Source: Candidatus Bathyarchaeota archaeon
GTDB lineage: Archaea; Thermoproteota; Bathyarchaeia; Bathyarchaeales; DTEX01
DNA: 61,843 bases
Assembly (NCBI GenBank): GCA_018396655.1
Contig: JAGTQF010000001.1
Coordinates: 1-61,843, forward strand
Reading direction: 5' to 3'
Part shown: in pieces, positions 17,246-27,634 of the stretch
Position numbering within the stretch: the first letter of the stretch is position 1
Layout of the letters: every line of letters starts with the position of its first letter
Notes under the pieces: model-generated
The model's input: the letters and a program-made list of their open reading frames with translations, nothing else
The model's database searches: none
What the model was told of the DNA's origin: nothing
Translations under genes and position numbers: made by a program

Positions 17246-18775
17246 ATGTTAGAGCACGAAAGAAACGCTAGTGTTCGGAGAGCCATATCCCTAATAATTC
17301 AGGCCGGATATCAGGTTGATAGTGGAGCATTTGAGTTTCTAAAGGAAATCTCAGAAAAAATGGACATAATCTCCCTAGTTAAAAAGGCGATAGATGATGT
17401 AAATGCTCTCCCAGAGAAACCTCTACTAATAACTCGTGAGATTCTTGAGAGAAAGGCCGAAACATCCGAGAAAAAATCAGCTATCACCTACCCCGTTAGT
17501 GGAAAGACAAGCTTTGAGCCGTATGCAAAGAATATTGATCCAGATCTAAAGGTGATAAGTGACTCAACAAGTAAGATAAGCGCAACAGGCTCCCTTGAAG
17601 ACTGCATAGAATATTTTAGAAGCCGCTTCATGAAGATAAGTCGGATAATAAGAAATAGAATAGATGCTAAGGACGCTGGTAGCTTAGCTGACGCACTGAA
17701 GGCTCCAGAAAGCTCTAAAGTGAAGGTTATCTGCATGATAACTGAGAAGCGCGAAACTAAGCGTGGGATATTTTTTAAGGTTGAAGATTTAGAGGACCAG
17801 GCAATAGCTTTTGCGCCGGCTGAGAATCCAAATGTGTATTCTAAGGCTCAAAAAACACTTCTTGATGAAGTTGTCTGTTTAAGTGTTTTGCGTGGGAAAA
17901 GAAACTTTCTTATCATAGATGACATAATATTGCCAGATGTCCCATTAAGGAAGCCGAACAAATCTTCTGTACCTATCTGTGCAGCCCTCTTATCGGATCT
18001 CCATGTTGGAAGTAAGATGTTCATGGAGAAGGAATTTAGGTATTTCATAAGGTGGTTGAGGGGAGAGGTTGGTAGGGACAATCTTAGGGAGATGGCGAGT
18101 CGAATCAAATACCTGGTGATAGCTGGGGATATTGTTGATGGTGTGGGAATATATCCTCAGCAGCTTGAGGAGCTGGAGATAACGGACCTTTATGAGCAGT
18201 ATAAACGCGCTGCGGAGATAATTGAGATGATTCCAGATTATATTGAGATTGTTATTATACCAGGTAATCACGACGCAACTAGAAGGGCTTTACCCCAACC
18301 AGCAATATTAAGGGAATATGCTGAACCACTATACGAACTTGGGAATATACATCTCTTAGGAGACCCCTCAGTCATAAGTCTCCATGGTGTGCATCTTCTT
18401 CTCTCTCATGGAAGAAGCCTAGACGATGTTATCTCCTCAGCTCCAAATATGAGCTTCCAAGCGCCTGATGAAGCCATGAAACTTCTACTCCAATGTAGAC
18501 ATTTAGCTCCCATATATGGTATGAGAACATTAATAGCTTCGGAGAGAACCGACCATTTAGTTATAGAGCACATACCAGACATTTTTCATGCGGGGCACGT
18601 GCACATGATGAAATACAGCGTCTATCGTGGCATACTCGTAGTGAATTCAGGCGCATGGCAGAAGCAGACAGAATATCAGAGGGAGATGGGACATATACCA
18701 AACCCGGGCATAATCCCAATAGTGGATTTACAAACTTTAAGCGTCTTCCCAATAGATTTCACTTCGACAATATAG
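17246..18775 (+). CDS. polD1: DNA polymerase D small subunit DP1 (proofreading exonuclease)
   Basis: SDLHVGS, GDIVDGVGIYP.Q, PGNHD, HG.SLDD, RHLAP.YG, GHVH, NSG.WQ.QT. Confidence 0.95.
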   Translation: MLEHERNASVRRAISLIIQAGYQVDSGAFEFLKEISEKMDIISLVKKAIDDVNALPEKPLLITREILERKAETSEKKSAITYPVSGKTSFEPYAKNIDPDLKVISDSTSKISATGSLEDCIEYFRSRFMKISRIIRNRIDAKDAGSLADALKAPESSKVKVICMITEKRETKRGIFFKVEDLEDQAIAFAPAENPNVYSKAQKTLLDEVVCLSVLRGKRNFLIIDDIILPDVPLRKPNKSSVPICAALLSDLHVGSKMFMEKEFRYFIRWLRGEVGRDNLREMASRIKYLVIAGDIVDGVGIYPQQLEELEITDLYEQYKRAAEIIEMIPDYIEIVIIPGNHDATRRALPQPAILREYAEPLYELGNIHLLGDPSVISLHGVHLLLSHGRSLDDVISSAPNMSFQAPDEAMKLLLQCRHLAPIYGMRTLIASERTDHLVIEHIPDIFHAGHVHMMKYSVYRGILVVNSGAWQKQTEYQREMGHIPNPGIIPIVDLQTLSVFPIDFTSTI

Positions 18776-18782
18776 AGGAGGG

Positions 18783-20024
18783 TCATTGAGAGGAGGATAA
18801 ATATTTGGGCTTGTAACTTATTATGCCTCTAAACCTTTCATCTTCAGAGAGAACTTCAACGATGACCTTTCGCGGAACACCAAGACTTATTTTCTTTGTC
18901 CGCCCATATCGCCCTAAACTTACCAGTCTCGAATTTAAAAGGCCCATAACATCCAGCTCATTTATCAGTCCACTCACTCTCCTCTGCGTTAAAGGACTTA
19001 TGCCAAGCTGCTCGCAAAGTTCCGAATAGAGATTATATATGTCCCCTGTTACCGAGCGATTCGCATCAAACTTGTTGAGTAAGTATACGCTTAAGAGAAC
19101 AATCTTTGAGTGAGTTGGCAAACTCTTTATGCTCTCATAGACTTGGTCGTGCTCTATTCTCTCCTGAGCCTCGCGGACATGAAACTCGGTAATTTTCCCA
19201 TCCCCCCTTCGCTCAGCAATCTCACCAGCGACTCTCAAAAGGTCTAGAGCTCTTCTGGCATCACCATGTTCGGCAGCCGCTAATGCAGCACATAATCTGA
19301 TAGCACCATTCGTTAAGACTCCATCATAAAATGCTATTTTCGCTCTCTCTAAAAGTATATCCTGAAGCTCATCAGCATTATAGGGCTTAAAGATAATCTC
19401 CTCTTCACTCAGTGTGCTTAGAACTCTCGGATCAAGAAATTCCTTAAACTTTAAGTCGTTTGAGATTCCTATAAGTGAGACTTTACTTTCATGGAGACTT
19501 TCATTTATTCTGGTGAGCTCATAGAGAAGCGTATCACCTCTAATTTTGATGAGTGCATCAATCTCGTCTAATGCTACGAGAAGGATTATTCCTTGAGATT
19601 CAAGATGCTTTTTGAATCTGTCGAAAATTTCGCCAACAGCTAATCCCGTGAAAGGAACTTTCACGTTAATGCTTGAGCATAATGTGGCAAGAACTCTATA
19701 TTCCGTTCCAGCCAGCCGGCAGTTAACGAAGCAAACCTTAACTGGAGAGCCTATCTCAGTAGCTTTCTGAGCAAGCTTATTTAACACAAACTTAACAACA
19801 GCTGTCTTTCCAGTGCCAGTCTTACCATAGATTAGGACATTGGAGCATGGTGAACCTTTAAGGGCAGGGGCGGTTATTTCGCCTAAGCGGAGGATTTGCT
19901 CCTTTCTATGGGGGAGATTTTCAGGAACATAATCATGCCTAAGCACTTCCCTATTTCTAAATATCCTTGAACCTTTCAGAAACTGAGCGAAGACATCGTC
20001 CAAGATATCCTCTTGATTCTCCAT
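18783..20024 (-). CDS. cdc6: Orc1/Cdc6 replication initiator
   Basis: Walker A GKTGTGKT, Walker B LDEID, LD.RV.S.L, PY...EL..IL..R, GDARRA.DLLR, C-terminal wHTH with GRYGRTK. Confidence 0.96.
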   Translation of the reverse strand: MENQEDILDDVFAQFLKGSRIFRNREVLRHDYVPENLPHRKEQILRLGEITAPALKGSPCSNVLIYGKTGTGKTAVVKFVLNKLAQKATEIGSPVKVCFVNCRLAGTEYRVLATLCSSINVKVPFTGLAVGEIFDRFKKHLESQGIILLVALDEIDALIKIRGDTLLYELTRINESLHESKVSLIGISNDLKFKEFLDPRVLSTLSEEEIIFKPYNADELQDILLERAKIAFYDGVLTNGAIRLCAALAAAEHGDARRALDLLRVAGEIAERRGDGKITEFHVREAQERIEHDQVYESIKSLPTHSKIVLLSVYLLNKFDANRSVTGDIYNLYSELCEQLGISPLTQRRVSGLINELDVMGLLNSRLVSLGRYGRTKKISLGVPRKVIVEVLSEDERFRGIISYKPKYLSSSQ

Positions 20025-20139
20025 TTAAACCCCTTTTCCTATCTGCCTTCAGCCTAGAAATTACACTTTATGAAAATTAAGAACTCTCATACAAAAAAAT
20101 AGATAAAGAATAGCAAAGTGTTAAAGAAAGGGGGCTCCC

Positions 20140-20574
20140 ACCCCTCTATTTCTACTGGAACAGCCCCTTTTATTAAGAAAAATTTTTCCTAAAAATAAAA
20201 GGAACAGCCTCCCATTGTGTATAGAAAGACTTGATATTTAACATCGTTTATACAATGTTTTATACTAAAAGTTAAAAATTAATTTTGCAATCCTACAGAA
20301 AAAAACAGGCCAATAAAGCCATTTTTTCAGCCAAAAATTTAAGCTTCTAGTTTCTTATGGTTGCTCCAGTGGAAAATTGGGGGTCGGTGTGATGTAGTGA
20401 AATCATATTATTGTCTGGTATTGCACATTATTGGTCTTTAACAAGTTTCACTTGTTGTGAACTACATGTTAGTGCTAAAAAGTATTCACTCTTTTTCTTC
20501 ACTCTTTTCTCGCTATAATAATCTAAAATGGATTTAATTTTGTTAAAAGGCCACCCCTTCATTTCCTTTGGAAA
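20140..20574. other. Replication origin oriC with three ORB boxes and an AT-rich unwinding region
   Basis: ORB1 20140-20161 (minus, GTTCCAGTAGAAATAGAGGGGT), ORB2 20363-20384 (plus, GCTCCAGTGGAAAATTGGGGGT), ORB3 20553-20574 (minus, TTTCCAAAGGAAATGAAGGGGT). ORB2 and ORB3 face each other across an AT-rich stretch directly upstream of cdc6. Confidence 0.88.
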
Positions 20575-20738
20575 AAGAAACAAAATCTTTTCTTTTCCTA
20601 TTTGAAGAAAATTTCCGTTATGTTAAATTTGTTAAGCAAAAAATTTGCAAAATTTTCCTTTTTTTGCAAAAGATAGCTTTTTCTCTATTTTTCTTCGCGG
20701 AGTTTTAACCGAATAATTTATAACTTGTGAAGTGATAA

Positions 20739-21179
20739 TTGTTAACCGTTAGCTACCGGGTGAAGTCTCTATTGCCTGCAAGAAAGATGAAAGTTGAAGT
20801 CTATGATGAATCTGGAAACCGATATGTAATTAGCTTTGAAGGTAGGGTTACACGGGAAAAGGCTCTAAAAATTTTAGACATTATTGAATTGCTTGGCGGT
20901 ATGCCAATTTCAGAACCAATTGAATATCTGCATGATCTCTCCAAAATCGAGAAAGTTCTCTTCATAGTAAAAAAGAATTTTCCCATAGTTTGGTTCTCGG
21001 CGAAAGAGGTCCAGAAAGTTTATGAGAAGGAGACTGGTGAATTTATAAGCCTTAGTGCGGTTTCAACCTACCTAACAAGACTGGCTGATAAGGGTATTTT
21101 AATAAAAGCGAAGAATGGCAGCCGCATATCTTTTAGACTTGCGTCTAGAGAATTAAAGGAAGTTATCAGGCCCTTTTAA
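20739..21179 (+). CDS. Hypothetical protein with a C-terminal winged helix (likely start ATG about 20787)
   Basis: N-terminal beta-beta-alpha unit MKVEVYDESGNRYVISFEG..TREKALKILD; C-terminal WFSAKEVQKVYE...ISLSAVSTYLTRLADKGIL wHTH pattern. Confidence 0.8.
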   Translation: MLTVSYRVKSLLPARKMKVEVYDESGNRYVISFEGRVTREKALKILDIIELLGGMPISEPIEYLHDLSKIEKVLFIVKKNFPIVWFSAKEVQKVYEKETGEFISLSAVSTYLTRLADKGILIKAKNGSRISFRLASRELKEVIRPF

Positions 21180-21182
21180 GGA

Positions 21183-21908
21183 TTAAGTCTTAGGGCTCTC
21201 TCCTCTTAAAATCTCTTCCATTTCTTTGTTTAAGCGGTAAACATAAGGAATCCTATCATCCCTTCTTTCAACATATCCGCGCGTATAAAGGCTTTTCATT
21301 AATCGAGCCGTGTGCTCCCTTGTCAACCCAATCCTATCTTTTATTTCTGGAACAGTTTTCTCTCCCTCTTTTGCTAAAATCTCTAAAACCTTCAATTCAG
21401 TTTCCGTGAGTGAGACTAAAACTTTATCGTCTTTCGCCGTGAATGTTGTGCGTGAGGGCTTAACCTTTGATTCCACATTTTTTTCTCTAACTTCGGCCTT
21501 CTCTATTCTGCTTTTCTCAATCTCGCTCAATTTCTTTAGAACCTCATCATATTTAACAGATAGATCATCAACTTTAGTTTTTAACTCCTCATAATTGGCG
21601 TAATACACCTCTTTATATTTCATTAATTTATCAACCTCGCCTCTAATATTAACTAGCATCGCATTTAGCTCCTCCAATCTTCTTATCTCTCCAGAAAGAA
21701 CCTCTTCAAACCTCCTAGATATCTCCTCAATCTTCTCGTTCTGCCTCTTAATATCTCCATTAAAACTAAAGATTATATCGTCGATAACGCCTTTTGCCCT
21801 CTTATATTCTCTTTCTCCCTCCCTCAACCGTTTATAATAAATAAATAAAAACGCAGAGGCTACCCCAAAGAGAACGATATGGATGCCTATCAATAGGATA
21901 TCAAACAT
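21183..21908 (-). CDS. Membrane-anchored coiled-coil protein with a C-terminal winged helix
   Basis: N-terminal TM (ILLIGIHIVLFGVASAFLFIYY-KR), about 110 aa of heptads, then LTETELKVLEILAKEGEKTVPEIKDRIGLTREHTARLMKSLYTRGYVER. Confidence 0.85.
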   Translation of the reverse strand: MFDILLIGIHIVLFGVASAFLFIYYKRLREGEREYKRAKGVIDDIIFSFNGDIKRQNEKIEEISRRFEEVLSGEIRRLEELNAMLVNIRGEVDKLMKYKEVYYANYEELKTKVDDLSVKYDEVLKKLSEIEKSRIEKAEVREKNVESKVKPSRTTFTAKDDKVLVSLTETELKVLEILAKEGEKTVPEIKDRIGLTREHTARLMKSLYTRGYVERRDDRIPYVYRLNKEMEEILRGESPKT

Positions 21909-21992
21909 TGTGACATCCCCGTGACATCACGAATCACGTGATTCATAAACATCACGATTCAATCACAATATAATCACAGTATTACGCTTAAA

Positions 21993-22099
21993 ATACTTTC
22001 GGTATCTCATTTTACATCCTCTTGAAAAAGATTTAGAATTACTGCGCCTAATACTGTAAAATATCAGGCTGAGAATATAAAATGAGATACCGAAAGTAT
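21993..22099. repeat. 29-bp inverted repeat (27/29) enclosing a 49-nt spacer; long hairpin or MITE-like element
   Basis: ATACTTTCGGTATCTCATTTTACATCCTC (21993-22021) versus GAGAATATAAAATGAGATACCGAAAGTAT (22071-22099). Confidence 0.85.
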
Positions 22100-22125
22100 A
22101 AGGATTTGTGATGTCTTTTGTGACA

Positions 22126-22572
22126 TCACGCTTTGCCGGACATAGCTCTGGGCTTAGAAAGAGCGAAAAGTCCCTTTTCTATCTCCTCCTGAAGAGTCCG
22201 TATTATTCTTATTTGTTCCTCGCTTATCTCACCCTTCTTCCATAAATCCTTATACTTTTCGCTGTATGCTCTTACTTTATTTGATATCTCAATGTATGGA
22301 TTTAGACGTGGATCATCAAAAATGCCCAAGTAACCTAAAAGAATAACTGTATAAATTGATCTAATTATATTCTTCCTTGCCTGCGCTAAGGTTCTGTTGA
22401 ATGAGCCACGGCTCACACCTACGGGCCTTAGTTTTGCCTTTTCCTCATAAACTATTCTTTCTTCACATATTTTTTCGGCTAAAATATCTATTAAGAAAGT
22501 TTCTGCCTGTATTCTCGTCAAATTGCTATTTTTAAGGAGTATTTTGAATATTGGATCTTTATTTAGGCTCAT
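22126..22572 (-). CDS. Hypothetical HTH-like DNA-binding protein
   Basis: SNLTRIQAET...YEEKAKLR..GVSRGSFNRTLAQARKNI resembles a sigma70-region-4/Tfx-like HTH. Confidence 0.75.
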   Translation of the reverse strand: MSLNKDPIFKILLKNSNLTRIQAETFLIDILAEKICEERIVYEEKAKLRPVGVSRGSFNRTLAQARKNIIRSIYTVILLGYLGIFDDPRLNPYIEISNKVRAYSEKYKDLWKKGEISEEQIRIIRTLQEEIEKGLFALSKPRAMSGKA

Positions 22573-22819
22573 CAGCCACTTTTGAACTTCATCTTTTAAT
22601 GCCGGATTTTTCAGTTCGAGAGTCCCTCCTAATGAATACGTTTTTGTATACGCATATCTATTTAAGTTTTTGCGCCTGAATAATTATTGCTGTCTGCTCA
22701 TGTGCTGTGATGTGATTTTGTTGTGATGTTTTGATATCTGCATTTTTCATAACGCTTAAGAGGTTAATGCGCTAAATCTTTTAGGTAACTGTTGGTAAGT
22801 TAGTATTGCTGGGTCTAAG

Positions 22820-23065
22820 ATGGGAAGAAGACGTAGGAAAGTAGTTCGCATACCAAAGAAGAAGCTACCTAAGGTTTTCTTGTGTCCAAAATGTAATCAA
22901 CAATCTATTAGAATTGAGATAATTGATGAGAGTGGAGGAGAAAGAAAGGCCACAATTAAATGTGGGAATTTAAATTGCGGCTTTACGAAAGAGATTCAAA
23001 TAAAACCCTTCTTTAAGGAAATAGACGTTTATTGCCAATTCATAGATGAATTTTATGGTTCATGA
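22820..23065 (+). CDS. elf1: Transcription elongation factor Elf1 homologue
   Basis: MGRRRRK...[11 protein letters not shown]...C..C...IDVYCQFID. Confidence 0.9.
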
Positions 23066-23089
23066 GAAAGTGATTGGGAGACAATTAAA

Positions 23090-23887
23090 ATGGTCGGTAG
23101 AGTCGAGAAATATCTCTTGGAAAGGATTCGGAATGAAGGAGCAATACACATGACGCTCATCGATCCAGAGAAGGTAACACCGGAGTCTGCCGTACTTATA
23201 TCTTGTGAGAGTGAATCTTGCGGTTCCTCGGCTATAATGATTGGTGGAACGACTCTTATATCTCCAAATACCCTAAATAGTGTTGCTAAGGCTATTAAGG
23301 ACTCTGTTAATATACCAGTCATATTATTCCCAAATAATATAACTGGGATTAGTGAGTACGCTGATGCAATATGGTTTATGTCCCTTTTAAACTCAGCAGA
23401 CCCATACTTTATAGCTGGAGCGCAGGTGCTAGCAGCACCATTGATTAGAAAACTCGGTTTGGAAACTATTCCACTTGGATATATAATAGTTGGTGAGGGG
23501 GGCTCGGCGGGGGTTATTGGAAAGGCGTGTCCAATTCCATACAATAAACCTGAGTTGGCGGTTGCCCATGCACTAGCAGCCCAATTCTTTGGCATGAGAT
23601 TTGTTTATTTAGAGGCTGGTTCTGGCGCAAGCCAGCCGGTTCCAACGGAAATGATTAGAATGGTTAGGGAGAATGTCAATTTAACCTTGATTGTTGGTGG
23701 AGGAATAAGGACTGGAAATCAGGCTGAGACTGCGGTGAAGGCTGGGGCTGACATAATAGTCACTGGCACGGTGACCGAGACTAGTAGAAAGGAAGAAATT
23801 AAAAGTAAGTTGATTGAAATAATTAGGGGTGTGAGGGAGGGGGCGAAAAGCAAGTTTAGGGGGAATGTTAGTATTGACAGCGTTTGA
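23090..23887 (+). CDS. Geranylgeranylglyceryl phosphate synthase
   Basis: HMTLIDP, IMIGGT, PVILFP, SLLNS, YLEAGSGA, VGGGIR, GAD.IVTGT. Confidence 0.93.
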   Translation: MVGRVEKYLLERIRNEGAIHMTLIDPEKVTPESAVLISCESESCGSSAIMIGGTTLISPNTLNSVAKAIKDSVNIPVILFPNNITGISEYADAIWFMSLLNSADPYFIAGAQVLAAPLIRKLGLETIPLGYIIVGEGGSAGVIGKACPIPYNKPELAVAHALAAQFFGMRFVYLEAGSGASQPVPTEMIRMVRENVNLTLIVGGGIRTGNQAETAVKAGADIIVTGTVTETSRKEEIKSKLIEIIRGVREGAKSKFRGNVSIDSV

Positions 23888-24185
23888 GCAGTATTTTGAG
23901 TCTCTTAAAAAGGTTTTAGGGCGAGATGACCTATACGATATATGGCCAGATTTTGAGCCCGAATACGATGAGAGGGAATATGCTTGGACGACGTTAAGGG
24001 GTTTAGGCGAATCCCTACTTCTTAATTGTGGCCAATGCGATGGGCCGTCAGATATGAGGCATAATAGGTGTAGGGCTTGTGTCGAAAGGAGGAAGGATAT
24101 AGCGAGAAGAACTTATGAGAGGGCTATGGGCCGCCCAATTGAGAAGTGGAACGCCATAATCTTATGTCGAATTCACATAGAGTAG
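23865..24185 (+). CDS. Small hypothetical Zn-binding protein
   Basis: LLLNCGQCDGPSD....CRAC; overlaps the GGGPS stop and abuts the DP2 start. Confidence 0.75.
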   Translation: MLVLTAFEQYFESLKKVLGRDDLYDIWPDFEPEYDEREYAWTTLRGLGESLLLNCGQCDGPSDMRHNRCRACVERRKDIARRTYERAMGRPIEKWNAIILCRIHIE

Positions 24186-24196
24186 TGCCAGTCATT

Positions 24197-27100
24197 ATGG
24201 AAAAAGCCAAAAGGATTAGTAGAGAATACCAAGAATACTTCTCTCATCTAGAGCAATCTCTAGAGGAAATTTATAAAATTGCCAGAGAGGCTAGAGAAAA
24301 AGGGCTTGATCCAAAGCCTTATCCTGAGATAGAGATGGCGGATGACTTAGCTGGTTTGGTTGAGGGCTTTATTGGGTTGCCGGGAATAGCTGAAAGAATA
24401 AGGGAGCTCTCTAAAGTGATGTCTAGGGAGAGGGTTGCCTTTAAGATAGCTGAGGAGATTGTTTATGGAAGGTTTGGGCATTTGGGTGAGGAGAGGGCTG
24501 CGGATTTAGCGATTAGAACCGCTCTAGCGATATTGACTGAGGGTGTTACCGCGGCGGTTTATTCTGAGGGTATAGCTAAGGTGGCAATAAAGACGAATAT
24601 GGATGGCTCTAGATATCTGGCGATATACTTAGCTGGCCCAATAAGGTCGGCTGGTGGAACAGAAACCGCCTTAACCCCTGTAATCGCAGATTTTGTTAGA
24701 CGACTACTAAAGTTGGATAGATATAAGCCAACTAGAGAGGAGATAGAGCGTTTTATTGAGGAGCTTAGGCTTTATGAGCGTGAAGTTGGTCAATTCCAGT
24801 ATAATGTCTCAGATGAGCAGCTTAGACTCGCCCTAGAACATCTCCCGGTTGAGGTCACTGGAACACCCTCCGACCCAGTTGAGGTCTCAGCTTACCGAAA
24901 TCTGCCACGCATAGAAACTAATCGTGTTCGTGGTGGAGCATTAAGGGTTGTAAATGATGGTATAGTGGGGAGGGCTGCAAAGGTTCTGGCAGTTGTCGAG
25001 GAGCTTGGTATTCAGGGTTGGGAGTGGCTTAGGGAGATTAAGGAGATTGAGAAAAAGAATAATAAATCTTCGTTGGGGTTCATGGAAGAGGTTCCAGCTG
25101 GCCGCCCAATACTCTGCTTTCCATCCAAGAGGGGAGGTTTTAGGCTAAGATATGGAAGGTCAAGAAATACTGGGCTGGCGGCCGTTGGCGTCCACCCATT
25201 AACCATGATAACCTTACAGAATTTTCTGGCAGGTGGAACCCAGCTTAAAATTGAAACTCCCGGAAAATCGGGAATCGTGATGCCTGTGGATTATATTGAA
25301 CCGCCAATTGTTAAATTGAAGGATGGTTCTGTCGTTAGGGTCTCCCAAGAAAATATAGAGGTTGTTAAGAGGGAAACCGAGAGAATTCTCTTTCTGGGAG
25401 ATATTCTTGTGAGCTTCGGCGACTTTCTCTATAATAATAGGGCCCTTTTACCCTCCGGATATACTGAAGAGTTCTGGCGTGAGGAGCTCAGGAAAGTGGT
25501 TATTGAAGATTTCGGCGGAGACATTGAAAGGGCCGCCTTAAGAGCCGGGATTTCACCACCATCTTTAAGGTCATATTTAGATGACCCATTCAATAATAAG
25601 CCTAGCGTTAACGAAGCCATCTCCTTGAGTAAAGCGCTTGGGGTTCCGCTGCACCCATCCTATGTATATTTCTGGTCAAATATAGGCGCTGAAGATTTAG
25701 AGTTAATTAGGAATTGGCTGTTAAAGTCCAATGTGAGCATTGAGGGTGGATTGATAACTAGAATTGAGGGTATTATGGACGAGGAGGTTAAAAGGGTCCT
25801 TGAGGAAATATGTCTTCCACATATGGTTGCTAATGGCAACATTATTGTTGAAGGGTCTGATGCTCACGCTCTTGCTATATCTTTAGGAATAAACAATCCC
25901 GACGTGAAAATTGATAATTCACTTTCAACGCTTGAGAACCTTTGTAGGCTTAGTGGCATGACTATTAGAGATAAGGCTCCATCTTTTATAGGCGCTAGGG
26001 TTGGCCGGCCGGAAAAGGCTAAGAAACGTGAGATGAAACCACCAGTTCATGTTCTATTTCCAGCTGGTTTAGGTGGGGGTCCTCAAAGGGACCTCATGAA
26101 AGCCTATAGGAAGGGAATAATTAGGGTTGAGATTGTCAGCCGAATATGCCCAAAATGTAGGGCAATAACATTTAAGAGATTTTGCCCATCATGTGGGTCG
26201 GAAACTAATCTTAGGTTTATCTGTCCTGAATGCGGCAGAGACCTGGATAAAGAGGAATGCCCAGTATGTAAGATTAATGCAAGAAACTTCTGTACTCAAA
26301 CGATTTCGATTAGAGATTTAATCGATGAAGCATGCCAGAAAATGGGCTTTACGCCAGAGCAAGTTAAGGGCGTTAAGGGTTTGACGAATAGGACTAAAAC
26401 TCCGGAGCCGATTGAAAAGGGAATTTTAAGGGCAAAGTATAATCTCTCCGTCTATAAGGATGGCACAATAAGATTTGACGCTACAAACGCGCCTTTAACG
26501 CACTTTAAACCATCGGAGATAGGCGTTAATGTTGAAAAACTGAGGGAGCTGGGCTACACCCACGATTATCTAGGTAATCCGCTTAAGGACCCGGAACAGA
26601 TATGCGAGCTTAAGGTTCAAGATGTTATAATTCCATGGAAGAGCGTTGAATATTTGATGGCCGTTGCGAACTTTGTTGATGAACTCCTCCAGAAGTTCTA
26701 TGGGCTTCCACCCTATTATAGGGTTAGTCGGCCTGATGATTTAGTTGGAGCGCTTATAATAGGCTTGGCTCCCCACACGTGTGCCGGGGTTTTAGGCAGA
26801 ATAATAGGCTTTACAAAGCTTAATGTATGCTTCGCCCATCCATTTTGGCATTCAGCAAAGCGTAGAGACTGCGATGGTGATGAAGATAGTATAATGCTTG
26901 CGTTGGACGCTTTCTTAAACTTTTCAAGGGAGTATCTTCCAGACCAAATTGGTGGAATAATGGATTCACCACTATTCATCATACGCATGGTCATGCCCGA
27001 GGAGGTCCAAAGGCAGGCGCATGAATTTGATGTTGCAGACCACTATCCGCTTGCCTTCTATATGGAAAGCCTGAAGGGAAGACCTGCCAGAGAGATAATC

Positions 27101-27634
27101 AACCTAATCGATATCATTAGGCATAGATTTGGTTCTGAAGCCCGCCTTCAGGGGCTCATGTTCACCACACCGACATCGAATATTGAGGCCGGTAACCGTG
27201 AGAGCATATATAAGACTCTGAAGCGCATGACCGATAAATTAAATGCCCAGCTAGGCCTGGCTGAGAAGATTAAAGCCGTTGACGCAAGGGTTGTTGCGGA
27301 AATAGTCCTAAATACGCATTTCATCCGAGATATATACGGGAACTTGAGGGCTTTTGCGACACAGAGTTTTAGATGTAAACGATGTAATAGGCGTTTTAGG
27401 CGTGTTCCACTTAAGGGTATATGTCCAGAATGTGGGGGAGAGCTAGCATTAACCGTTCATAGGGGGACTATCGAGAAGTATCTGGAGGATGCATGGCGCC
27501 TAGTTAAGAAGTATGGCATGTCAGAGTATTACATCCAACGCTTAACCCTAATTGAAGAGGAAATAGACTCGCTTTTCGAGAGCGGCAAGAGCGAAAAGCA
27601 GTCCAATCTATCAAAGTTTATAAATGGTTCTTAA
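24197..27634 (+). CDS. polD2: DNA polymerase D large subunit DP2 (ORF track start 24146)
   Basis: AGPIRSAGGT, GFRLRYGRSRNTG, IGARVGRPEKAK.R, Zn fingers, catalytic AKRRDCDGDED, C-terminal PIP-like QSNLSKF; no intein. Confidence 0.96.
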   Translation: MEKAKRISREYQEYFSHLEQSLEEIYKIAREAREKGLDPKPYPEIEMADDLAGLVEGFIGLPGIAERIRELSKVMSRERVAFKIAEEIVYGRFGHLGEERAADLAIRTALAILTEGVTAAVYSEGIAKVAIKTNMDGSRYLAIYLAGPIRSAGGTETALTPVIADFVRRLLKLDRYKPTREEIERFIEELRLYEREVGQFQYNVSDEQLRLALEHLPVEVTGTPSDPVEVSAYRNLPRIETNRVRGGALRVVNDGIVGRAAKVLAVVEELGIQGWEWLREIKEIEKKNNKSSLGFMEEVPAGRPILCFPSKRGGFRLRYGRSRNTGLAAVGVHPLTMITLQNFLAGGTQLKIETPGKSGIVMPVDYIEPPIVKLKDGSVVRVSQENIEVVKRETERILFLGDILVSFGDFLYNNRALLPSGYTEEFWREELRKVVIEDFGGDIERAALRAGISPPSLRSYLDDPFNNKPSVNEAISLSKALGVPLHPSYVYFWSNIGAEDLELIRNWLLKSNVSIEGGLITRIEGIMDEEVKRVLEEICLPHMVANGNIIVEGSDAHALAISLGINNPDVKIDNSLSTLENLCRLSGMTIRDKAPSFIGARVGRPEKAKKREMKPPVHVLFPAGLGGGPQRDLMKAYRKGIIRVEIVSRICPKCRAITFKRFCPSCGSETNLRFICPECGRDLDKEECPVCKINARNFCTQTISIRDLIDEACQKMGFTPEQVKGVKGLTNRTKTPEPIEKGILRAKYNLSVYKDGTIRFDATNAPLTHFKPSEIGVNVEKLRELGYTHDYLGNPLKDPEQICELKVQDVIIPWKSVEYLMAVANFVDELLQKFYGLPPYYRVSRPDDLVGALIIGLAPHTCAGVLGRIIGFTKLNVCFAHPFWHSAKRRDCDGDEDSIMLALDAFLNFSREYLPDQIGGIMDSPLFIIRMVMPEEVQRQAHEFDVADHYPLAFYMESLKGRPAREIINLIDIIRHRFGSEARLQGLMFTTPTSNIEAGNRESIYKTLKRMTDKLNAQLGLAEKIKAVDARVVAEIVLNTHFIRDIYGNLRAFATQSFRCKRCNRRFRRVPLKGICPECGGELALTVHRGTIEKYLEDAWRLVKKYGMSEYYIQRLTLIEEEIDSLFESGKSEKQSNLSKFINGS

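Follow-up and report, generated by a model that had tools for sequence, protein, structure and literature searches.

To our knowledge, how chromosomes are positioned and separated in archaea outside the Sulfolobales, which have SegAB, is not understood. RacA of Bacillus subtilis combines a helix-turn-helix (HTH) with a coiled coil and, by binding repeated sites near the origin, holds these at the cell envelope; its HTH is N-terminal and of the MerR type, the membrane is reached via DivIVA, and about 25 sites are bound. AspA (pNOB8) and SegB (Sulfolobus) are small (winged) HTH proteins that bind palindromic or repeated unique sites by their own genes and regulate themselves. Each acts together with a ParA-type ATPase encoded alongside, and in the case of AspA a ParB adaptor takes part as well. 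The operators of BlaI, MecI and CopY are 4-2-4 palindromes of the form TACAnnTGTA. RicO of Staphylococcus aureus bridges DNA and membrane with no ParA motor of its own, as shown experimentally (bioRxiv 10.64898/2026.03.06.710092). Transmembrane (TM) transcription regulators are mostly single-pass proteins and are common in Thermoproteota, according to the main text of a survey of them (PMC10269533). Here we analyze a stretch of 61,843 nt from Candidatus Bathyarchaeota archaeon (assembly GCA_018396655.1, contig JAGTQF010000001.1, positions 1 to 61,843), called the window below, in which three genes, A, B and C, lie beside a gene for an Orc1/Cdc6 initiator and a presumed replication origin (oriC). 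New here are a predicted TM protein that would bind DNA at a single locus (B) and is encoded in a replication island conserved across two classes, a candidate factor linked to Cdc6 (A), and a helical protein (C); TM regulators as a kind are already known. Article full texts, as distinct from their supplements, yielded no description of the A, B or C families, or of the island, in Bathyarchaeia or Nitrososphaeria.

Gene B encodes a predicted membrane-anchored winged-helix protein

Gene B (21183-21908, minus strand) is an open reading frame (ORF) for a protein with a predicted TM helix, a coiled coil and a winged helix of the TrmB/MarR type. The N-terminus of all 21 aligned homologues holds a hydrophobic 19-mer (Kyte-Doolittle 1.87-3.07) followed by 2-6 lysine or arginine residues, and a TM-like segment was present in 139 of 143 Bathyarchaeia homologues. 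Between 0 and 18 residues precede the helix in 20/21 homologues, and there is no second TM helix. One homologue has 49 residues ahead of the helix, and its start is perhaps over-called. By the positive-inside rule, the basic residues that follow the helix place the remainder of B in the cytoplasm, and B is probably a single-pass protein with its N-terminus outside. We saw no extracytoplasmic or membrane-embedded sensor part, which is typical of studied TM regulators though not definitional. B fits the definition of a TM transcription regulator in the main text of the survey, namely a predicted DNA-binding domain joined, in one protein, to one or more predicted TM regions (PMC10269533).

A conserved juxtamembrane motif (EY..AK..V.DII.SFN) is followed by a variable middle stretch of about 120 amino acids (aa), and profile positions of about 45-165 matched only coiled-coil proteins in the PDB. 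The C-terminal winged helix is nearly invariant among the aligned homologues, its recognition region included. Residues 167-225 score 36.1 bits with TrmB (PF01978; cut-off 25.6) and 32.5 bits with MarR (PF01047; cut-off 24.6). Both scores are higher than that with Penicillinase_R (PF03965), which at 22.6 bits equals its cut-off of 22.6; MecI was matched in the PDB at E 0.0027. Pfam gave no MerR-type HTH match for B. Judged from its sequence, B has the layout of a link between DNA and membrane.

GTGAY half-sites and palindromes cluster at gene B

Over the whole window GTGAY is not enriched (114 occurrences against 139 expected), and 14 of the 114 fall within 21910-22727. The longer motif GTGATGT occurs 12 times against 3.96 expected, a number reached in 0 of 100 shuffles, and 7 of the 12 lie within 20389-22729. 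The first cluster (21909-21977) is directly 5' of B's ATG, where the preceding 68 nt carry eight GTGAY/RTCAC half-sites; the 100 nt from 21910 hold eight, and no other place in the 1.32-Mb genome has more than four. It contains two palindromes, GTGACATCAC at 21921-21930 and ATCACGTGAT at 21933-21942, and equivalent clusters are found in relatives. The second site (22107-22130) consists of GTGATGT, 5 nt and a further copy of GTGACATCAC at 22120-22129, which overlaps the TGA stop of C and is the most conserved site. A third cluster of B-type half-sites (22700-22730, with GTGAT at 22707, 22712 and 22723) lies between the divergent C and Elf1 genes and occurs only in the window's family (L036, L039, L040) and in L032. 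The palindrome GTGAYRTCAC is found five times in the genome, twice at the B-C locus (21921 and 22120) and three times inside or at the ends of reading frames. The two palindromes lie 199, 238, 254 or 343 bp apart, spacings with no common phase, and the idea of a shared helical phase was dropped.

The loci that we compared are not independent genomes, since some of L083-L162 repeat genomes that carry G handles (L115 and L021, for example, are both G052), and counts are therefore also given de-duplicated by C sequence. The count of B sites omits 19 of 175 loci in which no C was found. Of 144 loci with B, 130 carry the palindrome at C's stop (114 of 127 after de-duplication), as does 1 of 12 loci without a B match. 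That single locus, L018, has a B that is merely cut by the contig end, so that the palindrome is absent from 11/11 loci truly without B, in five families. The palindrome is kept beside a divergent B that lacks the TM segment (L172, L173). Four of five complete or near-complete genomes have exactly two copies of a composite pattern, GTGAYRTCAC-N2-6-RTCAC, both in the B-C locus and on opposite strands; a reversed-pattern control found none. The fifth genome (G167) has B but neither C nor the composite site. The B-C gap of the second class described below (123-202 nt) carries five or six GTGAT half-sites, one of them over C's stop, and whole loci of that class (9-12 kb) carry 37-63. A nearly invariant recognition region in B would fit the equally near-invariant half-site.

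Two of these points had been anticipated in a preliminary description of this DNA, made from its letters alone. It gave B an N-terminal TM helix, a long coiled coil and a C-terminal winged HTH, a layout borne out by hydropathy in 21/21 homologues, by the coiled coils matched in the PDB and by the TrmB/MarR scores. It also held that the gaps are packed with a repeated motif, and around B and C the density of GTGAY proved to be unique in the genome, with clusters that go with B.

On the minus strand at 21988-22003 we read by eye a putative transcription factor B recognition element (BRE) and TATA box for B, CCGAAAGTATTTTAAG; relatives have a TTAAG-type element at this position. An inverted repeat between B and C (21993-22099, with 29-nt arms that are 93% complementary and 49 nt apart) duplicates the BRE/TATA-like element in inverted orientation. 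Its minus strand folds at -50.7 kcal/mol and leads into a U-rich tract, and the repeat may be C's terminator. The arms were found neither elsewhere in the genome nor in 28 related loci, and a mobile element was rejected on these grounds. Rfam returned sub-threshold plant microRNA models for the hairpin (29.7 bits against a gathering threshold of 93), which we take to be chance hairpin matches.

The replication island is conserved in two classes

By ORFs and Pfam the island spans 17.2-27.6 kb of the window, from the small to the large subunit of DNA polymerase D (PolD). The gene for the small subunit (17246-18775, plus strand), named by similarity in every related locus, forms its left edge. 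Next come the Orc1/Cdc6 initiator gene that we call Cdc6-1 (18783-20024, minus strand; Pfam Cdc6_C 5.1e-29, Cdc6_lid 3e-27), the presumed oriC (20025-20738), genes A, B and C, and a gene for an Elf1-type zinc ribbon (22820-23065, plus strand; Pfam 1.6e-15). The gene for the PolD large subunit (24146-27634, plus strand) is the right edge and lies 3' of Elf1, a geranylgeranylglyceryl phosphate synthase gene (GGGPS) and a Cys-rich ORF. The Cys-rich ORF (106 aa, 23865-24185) overlaps the genes for GGGPS and the PolD large subunit, between which it lies; identity across the class is 57-89%, no Pfam family was matched, and the product may partner PolD as a zinc binder.

The order in Bathyarchaeia is PolD-small, Cdc6, ori, A, B, C, (Elf1), GGGPS, PolD-large. 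Full-length B, A and C were each found in about 50 genomes among 60 relatives and the window's own genome. B and Cdc6-1 lie on one contig, at most 5.1 kb apart, in 40 of 48 genomes of the order; of the remaining eight, seven have them on different contigs and in one no Cdc6-1 was found. The arrangement Cdc6, A, (two extra genes), B, C holds in 20/20 loci from different genera, and all 80 named Bathyarchaeia loci (L083-L162) are collinear, 70 reaching Cdc6 and 10 being cut by contig ends.

The extra pair, present between A and B in 10/20 loci and co-directional with A, encodes a NurA-like nuclease and a HerA/FtsK-type ATPase. The HerA gene occupies this place in 41 of the 80 named loci, with NurA in all but one. 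The ATPase matches DUF87, with weak matches to CedD and HerA (for example L022:5431-7966; also in L021-L031), and the window's genome has two HerA-type genes elsewhere (C4:14263-14874 and C4:18795-19379). Several Bathyarchaeia families, and other classes of the phylum too, encode a HypF-type carbamoyltransferase of about 775 aa next to B or in the B-C interval (L043:8305-10617, L044:5072-7399, L071, L076, L172 and L173, for example), for no evident reason. A gene with HTH_3 (XRE-type) and CBS domains lies between B and C in L046 (8727-9305) and L052 (7506-8132), the two on which Pfam was run, and ORFs of similar size occupy the same place in L057, L067-L069 and L080. This gene adds a fourth DNA-binding gene to the island in some families.

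The second class is represented by family f40, whose name, Nitrososphaerota, comes from Atlas taxon labels alone and from no named record. A B-like protein is encoded in 45/45 of its complete genomes of 1.5-1.8 Mb. In four of five genomes tested the B-like gene lies 1.2-1.3 kb from Cdc6, and in the fifth the two are split across the ends of a circular record. The four loci read PolD-small, Cdc6, gap, A, B, C, GGGPS, PolD-large. Profiles built on Bathyarchaeia recognized A, B and C of this class, where B likewise combines all three parts: TM helix, coiled coil and winged helix. A and B are also adjacent in five loci of other classes with no Cdc6 nearby (L070, L071, L074, L076, L078). Within the window (1-61843) there is no ParA/MinD-type gene (PF13614, PF01656), and three or four matches of this type lie elsewhere in the genome (C29, C12, C27 and C1:109731).

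Thirteen sequencing runs contain the region 20000-23100, all of DNA and mostly from hot-spring metagenomes by their records; eight of them may be the source of the sequence, and there was no RNA run among the runs listed. A scan for bacterial promoters and terminators gave 9 promoter-like sites against 8.2 expected, a result from bacterial models that is not meaningful for an archaeon. NCBIfam gave winged-helix families below cut-off only.

Genes A and C and the presumed origin

The 714-nt gap between Cdc6-1 and A is the AT-richest kb of the window (GC 0.325), and two of the window's three matches to a regular expression for origin recognition box (ORB)-like sequences fall inside it (20149-20159 and 20365-20375). 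With its lowest GC of the window and its two ORB-like boxes, an origin in the gap is a fair reading; an Orc1/Cdc6 gene, an AT-rich gap and ORB boxes, as at archaeal Orc1/Cdc6 origins, are all present here. On these sequence features we presume that the gap is oriC. Its right end is A's promoter region, with TTGTGAA-type repeats, and TTGTGAA/TTCACAA occurs at least twice in 25 of 43 Cdc6-A gaps. Related loci have a conserved stretch 5' of A, TATAACTTGTGAA, and a TATA-like box between TTCAC and GTGAA. GTGAA/TTCAC reaches a density of six in 360 nt in the window, a value tied with three other places in the genome and not unique, and the motif is a lead to A's site that is weak in the window itself. 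The Cdc6-A gaps of the second class (L063-L066) hold many copies of TGTTAACA adjoining ORB-like boxes of the form CCCCTT.ATTTCCA.TC..GG; this repeat differs from the one 5' of A in Bathyarchaeia.

Gene A (20739-21179, plus strand) is an ORF with an N-terminal strand-strand-helix domain and a C-terminal winged helix, and its probable start is a TTG at 20772 rather than at 20739. The AlphaFold2 model gives the C-terminal domain as helix-helix-helix-strand-strand, the topology of a winged HTH, at a predicted local distance difference test score of about 90. Foldseek matched it to winged helices of the ArsR/MarR/Fur type with probability 1.00 but a best E of 2.5e-3, a generic likeness only; structure 4rs8, that of AspA, stood at rank 47 in the list. 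Profile searches of the PDB gave nothing useful for A. A predicted complex of A with Cdc6-1 received no support, a result that counts neither way.

Gene C (22126-22614, minus strand) has an annotated ATG at 22572 (ORF 22126-22572). The conserved N-terminal stretch of its family (…LKNPALKDEVQKWL) is encoded in frame 5' of this ATG, at 22573-22614 on the minus strand. The extension contains no ATG, GTG or TTG, and the apparent TTG start of a same-genus homologue aligns with a CTG in the window. The start may lie 5' of the annotated ATG, at this non-canonical CTG (22614-22612). The model of C is all-helical, no Pfam family was matched in 21/21 homologues, Foldseek found nothing in the PDB at E 0.001 or better, and a PDB profile search gave nothing useful. 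For a sigma-70 region 4-like HTH there was no Pfam match in 21/21 members and none in the PDB, whether by sequence or by fold. The only leads are such a motif as read by eye and, weakly, an Atlas cluster that is distant (score 0.81) and has Sigma70_r4 on 14% of its members.

Some 20-60 nt 5' of C's start lies a palindrome, GAATACGTTTTTGTATAC (22634-22651), of the pattern RAATACA-N4-TGTATTY. The regular expression for it matched 5' of C in 128 of 156 loci, with 148 matches in all 1.85 Mb of loci. The palindrome is conserved across Bathyarchaeia and recurs in the second class, and loci that lack B or A retain it. We infer that it is bound by C.

Phyletic patterns separate the three genes

Co-occurrence was tabulated for 301 Bathyarchaeia genomes with profile searches for B, A, C and Cdc6; three draws of genomes were assumed to be the same, as their handles coincide. 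Cdc6-1 was called at E 1e-80 or better, and "strong B" excludes ten weak matches (E 1e-10 to 1e-5). The genomes are kin, and so the counts are descriptions and not tests. Matches were found in 227 genomes for B, 177 for A, 194 for Cdc6-1 and 246 for C. A and Cdc6-1 occur together in 174 genomes, A only in 3, Cdc6-1 only in 20 and neither in 104. For strong B and Cdc6-1 the numbers are 148 with both, 69 with B only, 46 with Cdc6-1 only and 38 with neither, and for A and B they are 138 with both, 39 with A only, 79 with B only and 45 with neither. These counts indicate that A follows Cdc6-1 and that B does not.

Individual families show the same split. In f24, B is present in 64/71 genomes and C in 57/71, and A and Cdc6-1 are each present in 1/71, the same single genome. 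The window's genome has a second Orc1/Cdc6 paralogue (G000:C10:907-1986), 30% identical to Cdc6-1 and present in nearly all relatives, which might mark a second origin. In five f24 genomes A was not found and the sole Cdc6 is this other paralogue (30-33% identical), and in two single-contig f24 genomes B lies about 290-340 kb from the only remaining Cdc6. The f24 loci (L043, L050, L051, L053-L056 and L058-L060) read PolD-small, (small cupin-like ORF), B, HypF, C, NadE, Elf1, GGGPS, PolD-large, and the regular expression found no ORB-like boxes near them. The origin in f24 must either lie elsewhere or be one at which initiation works differently. Conversely, f14, f20, f22, f23, f25, f26 and f27 have kept Cdc6-1 and A and have B in 0-1 genomes; these families keep C, and A and C are direct neighbors there. 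These patterns say that A, B and C are not one module; in the reading that we prefer, each is controlled separately. A, which comes and goes with Cdc6-1, is a candidate accessory protein of the winged-helix type for the Cdc6-1 origin.

The preliminary description had proposed instead that the trio may form one ParA-free module, which would bind centromere-like GTGAY sites beside oriC and tether the origin region at the membrane for segregation, or would couple initiation to the cell cycle. Much of its groundwork is sound. The trio stands beside Cdc6 and oriC in 80/80 named loci (70 reaching Cdc6) and in the second class, and the synteny comparison that it had proposed came out positive, with B within 5.1 kb of Cdc6-1 in 40/48 genomes. 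B is tether-like in layout, and its sites are unique to the locus, like a centromere by its binder's gene. A and B stay adjacent in five other-class loci with no Cdc6 nearby, and a HerA/FtsK-type ATPase stands between A and B in 41/80 loci, with NurA in all but one. The claim that no ParA-like gene is present holds for the window; the three or four ParA/MinD-type genes elsewhere in the genome tell against a ParA-free module. So does the phyletic split, both in the counts (148/69/46/38 for B and Cdc6-1, 138/39/79/45 for A and B) and in the families that keep B and C without A, Cdc6-1 or ORB boxes, or Cdc6-1 and A without B. Each gene also has a separate conserved element at its promoter, as self-regulated regulators have. 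A single module of all three genes is, on this evidence, most improbable. The description had named homologues scattered away from origins as grounds for doubt; B is near oriC in most lineages, and in two single-contig f24 genomes it lies 290-340 kb from the only Cdc6. Its three HTH genes by oriC are indeed there, with a winged helix in B and a weak, sub-cut-off one in A, but an HTH is unproven for C, given the lack of a Pfam family in 21/21 homologues and an all-helical model that matches nothing in the PDB. Overall, its interpretation is partly supported.

Gene B as a proposed single-locus DNA binder at the membrane

From what was observed of anatomy, synteny, phyletic patterns, site uniqueness and the co-occurrence of sites with B, we infer which protein binds which element, the membrane topology, repression and any role in chromosome positioning. 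We favor an account in which an old replication island encodes three separate proteins of DNA-binding type, with B a membrane-anchored single-locus binder that holds its own site at the membrane; we think this account about as apt to be right as wrong. B would be a single-pass TM protein with no outside domain, whose dimerizing coiled coil of about 120 aa would carry the winged helix, similar to those of TrmB, MarR and MecI, into the cytoplasm. Its dimers would bind the 4-2-4 palindrome GTGAYRTCAC and flanking GTGAY half-sites; these form two or three clusters confined, genome-wide, to the stretch from B to C's 3' end. B's promoter would thereby be shut, and perhaps also read-through from C. 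The same binding would hold a stretch of chromosome at the membrane, one that lies 1-5 kb from oriC in most lineages, since a membrane-fixed protein bound at a single chromosomal position keeps that position near the membrane. C would be a third, self-regulated helical protein, and A an accessory factor of the Cdc6-1 origin. A role of B in origin positioning or segregation is possible.

Several observations weigh against this account. The TM helix of B was called from hydropathy alone. Outside the two classes, 10 of 17 B-like proteins do not have the full layout, nine of them with no TM segment and one short, with a TM-like stretch and no coiled coil. The winged-helix matches of A are all under the Pfam cut-offs (MCM_C 24.1 bits against 27), and C has no DNA-binding fold detectable by Pfam, PDB sequence or fold searches. 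Among distinct loci with B, 13/127 lack the palindrome at C's stop. Family f24, with neither Cdc6-1 nor ORB boxes near B, implies that proximity to an origin is not required. In f24 only 8 nt separate the convergent C and HypF, and the C-stop site sits in this gap, 2.5 kb from B; the region upstream of B itself is mostly devoid of sites, so that autoregulation is not the whole story there. As the sites are in cis to B, their loss with B is no proof that B binds them, and another binder, such as C, that controls B through them could fit the loss too. On a FastTree tree of Cdc6 the loss of B takes about three changes, which give 1-2 independent pairs, and this places the co-variation of B and site beyond a statistical test.

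The alternative binder deserves a closer look. If C, or A, or a factor encoded elsewhere bound GTGAYRTCAC to control B, the sites would vanish because their target gene is gone; with sites in cis to B, co-loss is expected here as well, and there are too few independent events to separate the readings. The main site overlaps C's stop, and G167, which has B and no C, has no composite site. However, C already owns a palindrome of different sequence and has no recognizable DNA-binding domain, and A is absent from f24, where the site persists. B, on the other hand, has a bona fide winged helix with a recognition region as nearly invariant as the half-site, and the f24 site is kept 2.5 kb from B's promoter. 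We consider binding by a protein other than B decidedly unlikely.

B may also be an ordinary TM transcription regulator of itself, C and neighbors (Elf1, NurA-HerA), with an anchor that serves signal-dependent release or inactivation, a DNA-membrane contact without function, and a place near oriC that is simply inherited gene order. Such regulators are common in archaea, at least one being present in 367 of 404 species and four per genome on average, by the figures in the main text of the survey (PMC10269533). Sites fall across the promoter region of B; in the window's family they do so in the divergent C/Elf1 promoter region as well. The 4-2-4 form is that of BlaI/MecI/CopY operators, to whose proteins B is linked by a Penicillinase_R score at the 22.6-bit cut-off and by MecI at E 0.0027. 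B outlives the loss of the adjoining origin in f24, and a TM segment is missing from nine of the B-like proteins in other classes. Set against this, B has no extracellular domain (0-18 residues before the helix in 20/21 homologues) and no obvious sensing part, its sites are only at its own gene, with no evident output, and two classes share one gene order, something unusual among archaeal genes that are unlinked. The conserved site of f24 lies between two convergent gene ends, far from promoters. The lack of any other genomic site, and thus of an evident output, together with this f24 site, argues that B is more than a self-repressor, and we regard an ordinary regulator as rather unlikely.

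A stronger form of the membrane-anchored binder would make B and its inverted pair of composite sites a minimal, motor-free anchor of chromosome to membrane, inherited from the ancestor of Bathyarchaeia and Nitrososphaeria, with HerA/FtsK and NurA as partners in about half of the Bathyarchaeia loci and A as an accessory factor of Cdc6-1. We think this version unlikely. If true, it would be the first archaeal origin-membrane tether described, a counterpart of RacA and RicO, in lineages that have no known segregation machinery.

Even short of that, a candidate membrane-inserted, site-specific DNA binder with genome-unique sites, encoded 1-5 kb from oriC in the majority of Bathyarchaeia and likewise placed in the second class, bears on the gap in understanding of archaeal chromosome positioning outside the Sulfolobales. 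Nitrososphaerota, the label that one tool gives to the second class, include the cultured ammonia oxidizers, which makes the question testable by ordinary means. A single origin has been mapped in Nitrosopumilus maritimus, as cited in PMC4010727. Gene A, for its part, may encode a new accessory factor for one Orc1/Cdc6 paralogue. Were B merely self-regulating, there would still be three conserved protein/site pairs and a replication island kept across classes.

Comparison with known systems

B shares some features with each of the systems introduced above. With AspA and SegB it shares unique palindromic sites adjoining the binder's gene, a likeness of layout and not homology. The ParABS, SegAB and AspA-ParB-ParA partition systems have a ParA-type ATPase alongside; the window contains no ParA-type gene, and B would have a membrane anchor of its own. 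The palindrome GTGAnnTCAC has the 4-2-4 form of BlaI/MecI/CopY operators but differs from them in the sequence of the half-site. BlaI, MecI and CopY are soluble dimers with no TM helix or long coiled coil, whereas B is predicted to have both, and its membership of their family is borderline.

B resembles the TM regulators of the ToxR/CadC type, which act on DNA from the membrane by means of a DNA-binding domain and at least one TM region; archaeal examples are cited in the main text of the survey (PMC10269533). In the members studied so far, a sensor domain lies outside or in the periplasm and the targets are unlinked; B has no outside domain, and has instead a long coiled-coil spacer and sites only beside its own gene. 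B's family is not named in that main text, and the supplements, which list all regulators found, may include it.

Like RacA, B joins a DNA-binding domain to a coiled coil, but it does not have the N-terminal MerR-type HTH followed by a coiled coil that marks the RacA family. B itself appears to be inserted in the membrane, its winged helix is C-terminal and of the TrmB/MarR type, and its sites are at its own locus only. RicO has the same three elements that we predict for B, in that a coiled coil joins a domain for sequence-specific DNA binding to an element that binds the membrane, and its specific sites, like those of B in most lineages, lie near the origin (bioRxiv 10.64898/2026.03.06.710092). 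The order is the opposite, with an N-terminal DNA-binding domain, a C-terminal amphipathic helix and no integral TM helix in RicO, and its nine sites are spread over about 700 kb round oriC, against two or three clusters within about 1 kb for B. RicO is bacterial and B archaeal, and we liken them by domain logic alone, not by sequence. By that logic B appears closest to RicO, and also close to RacA.

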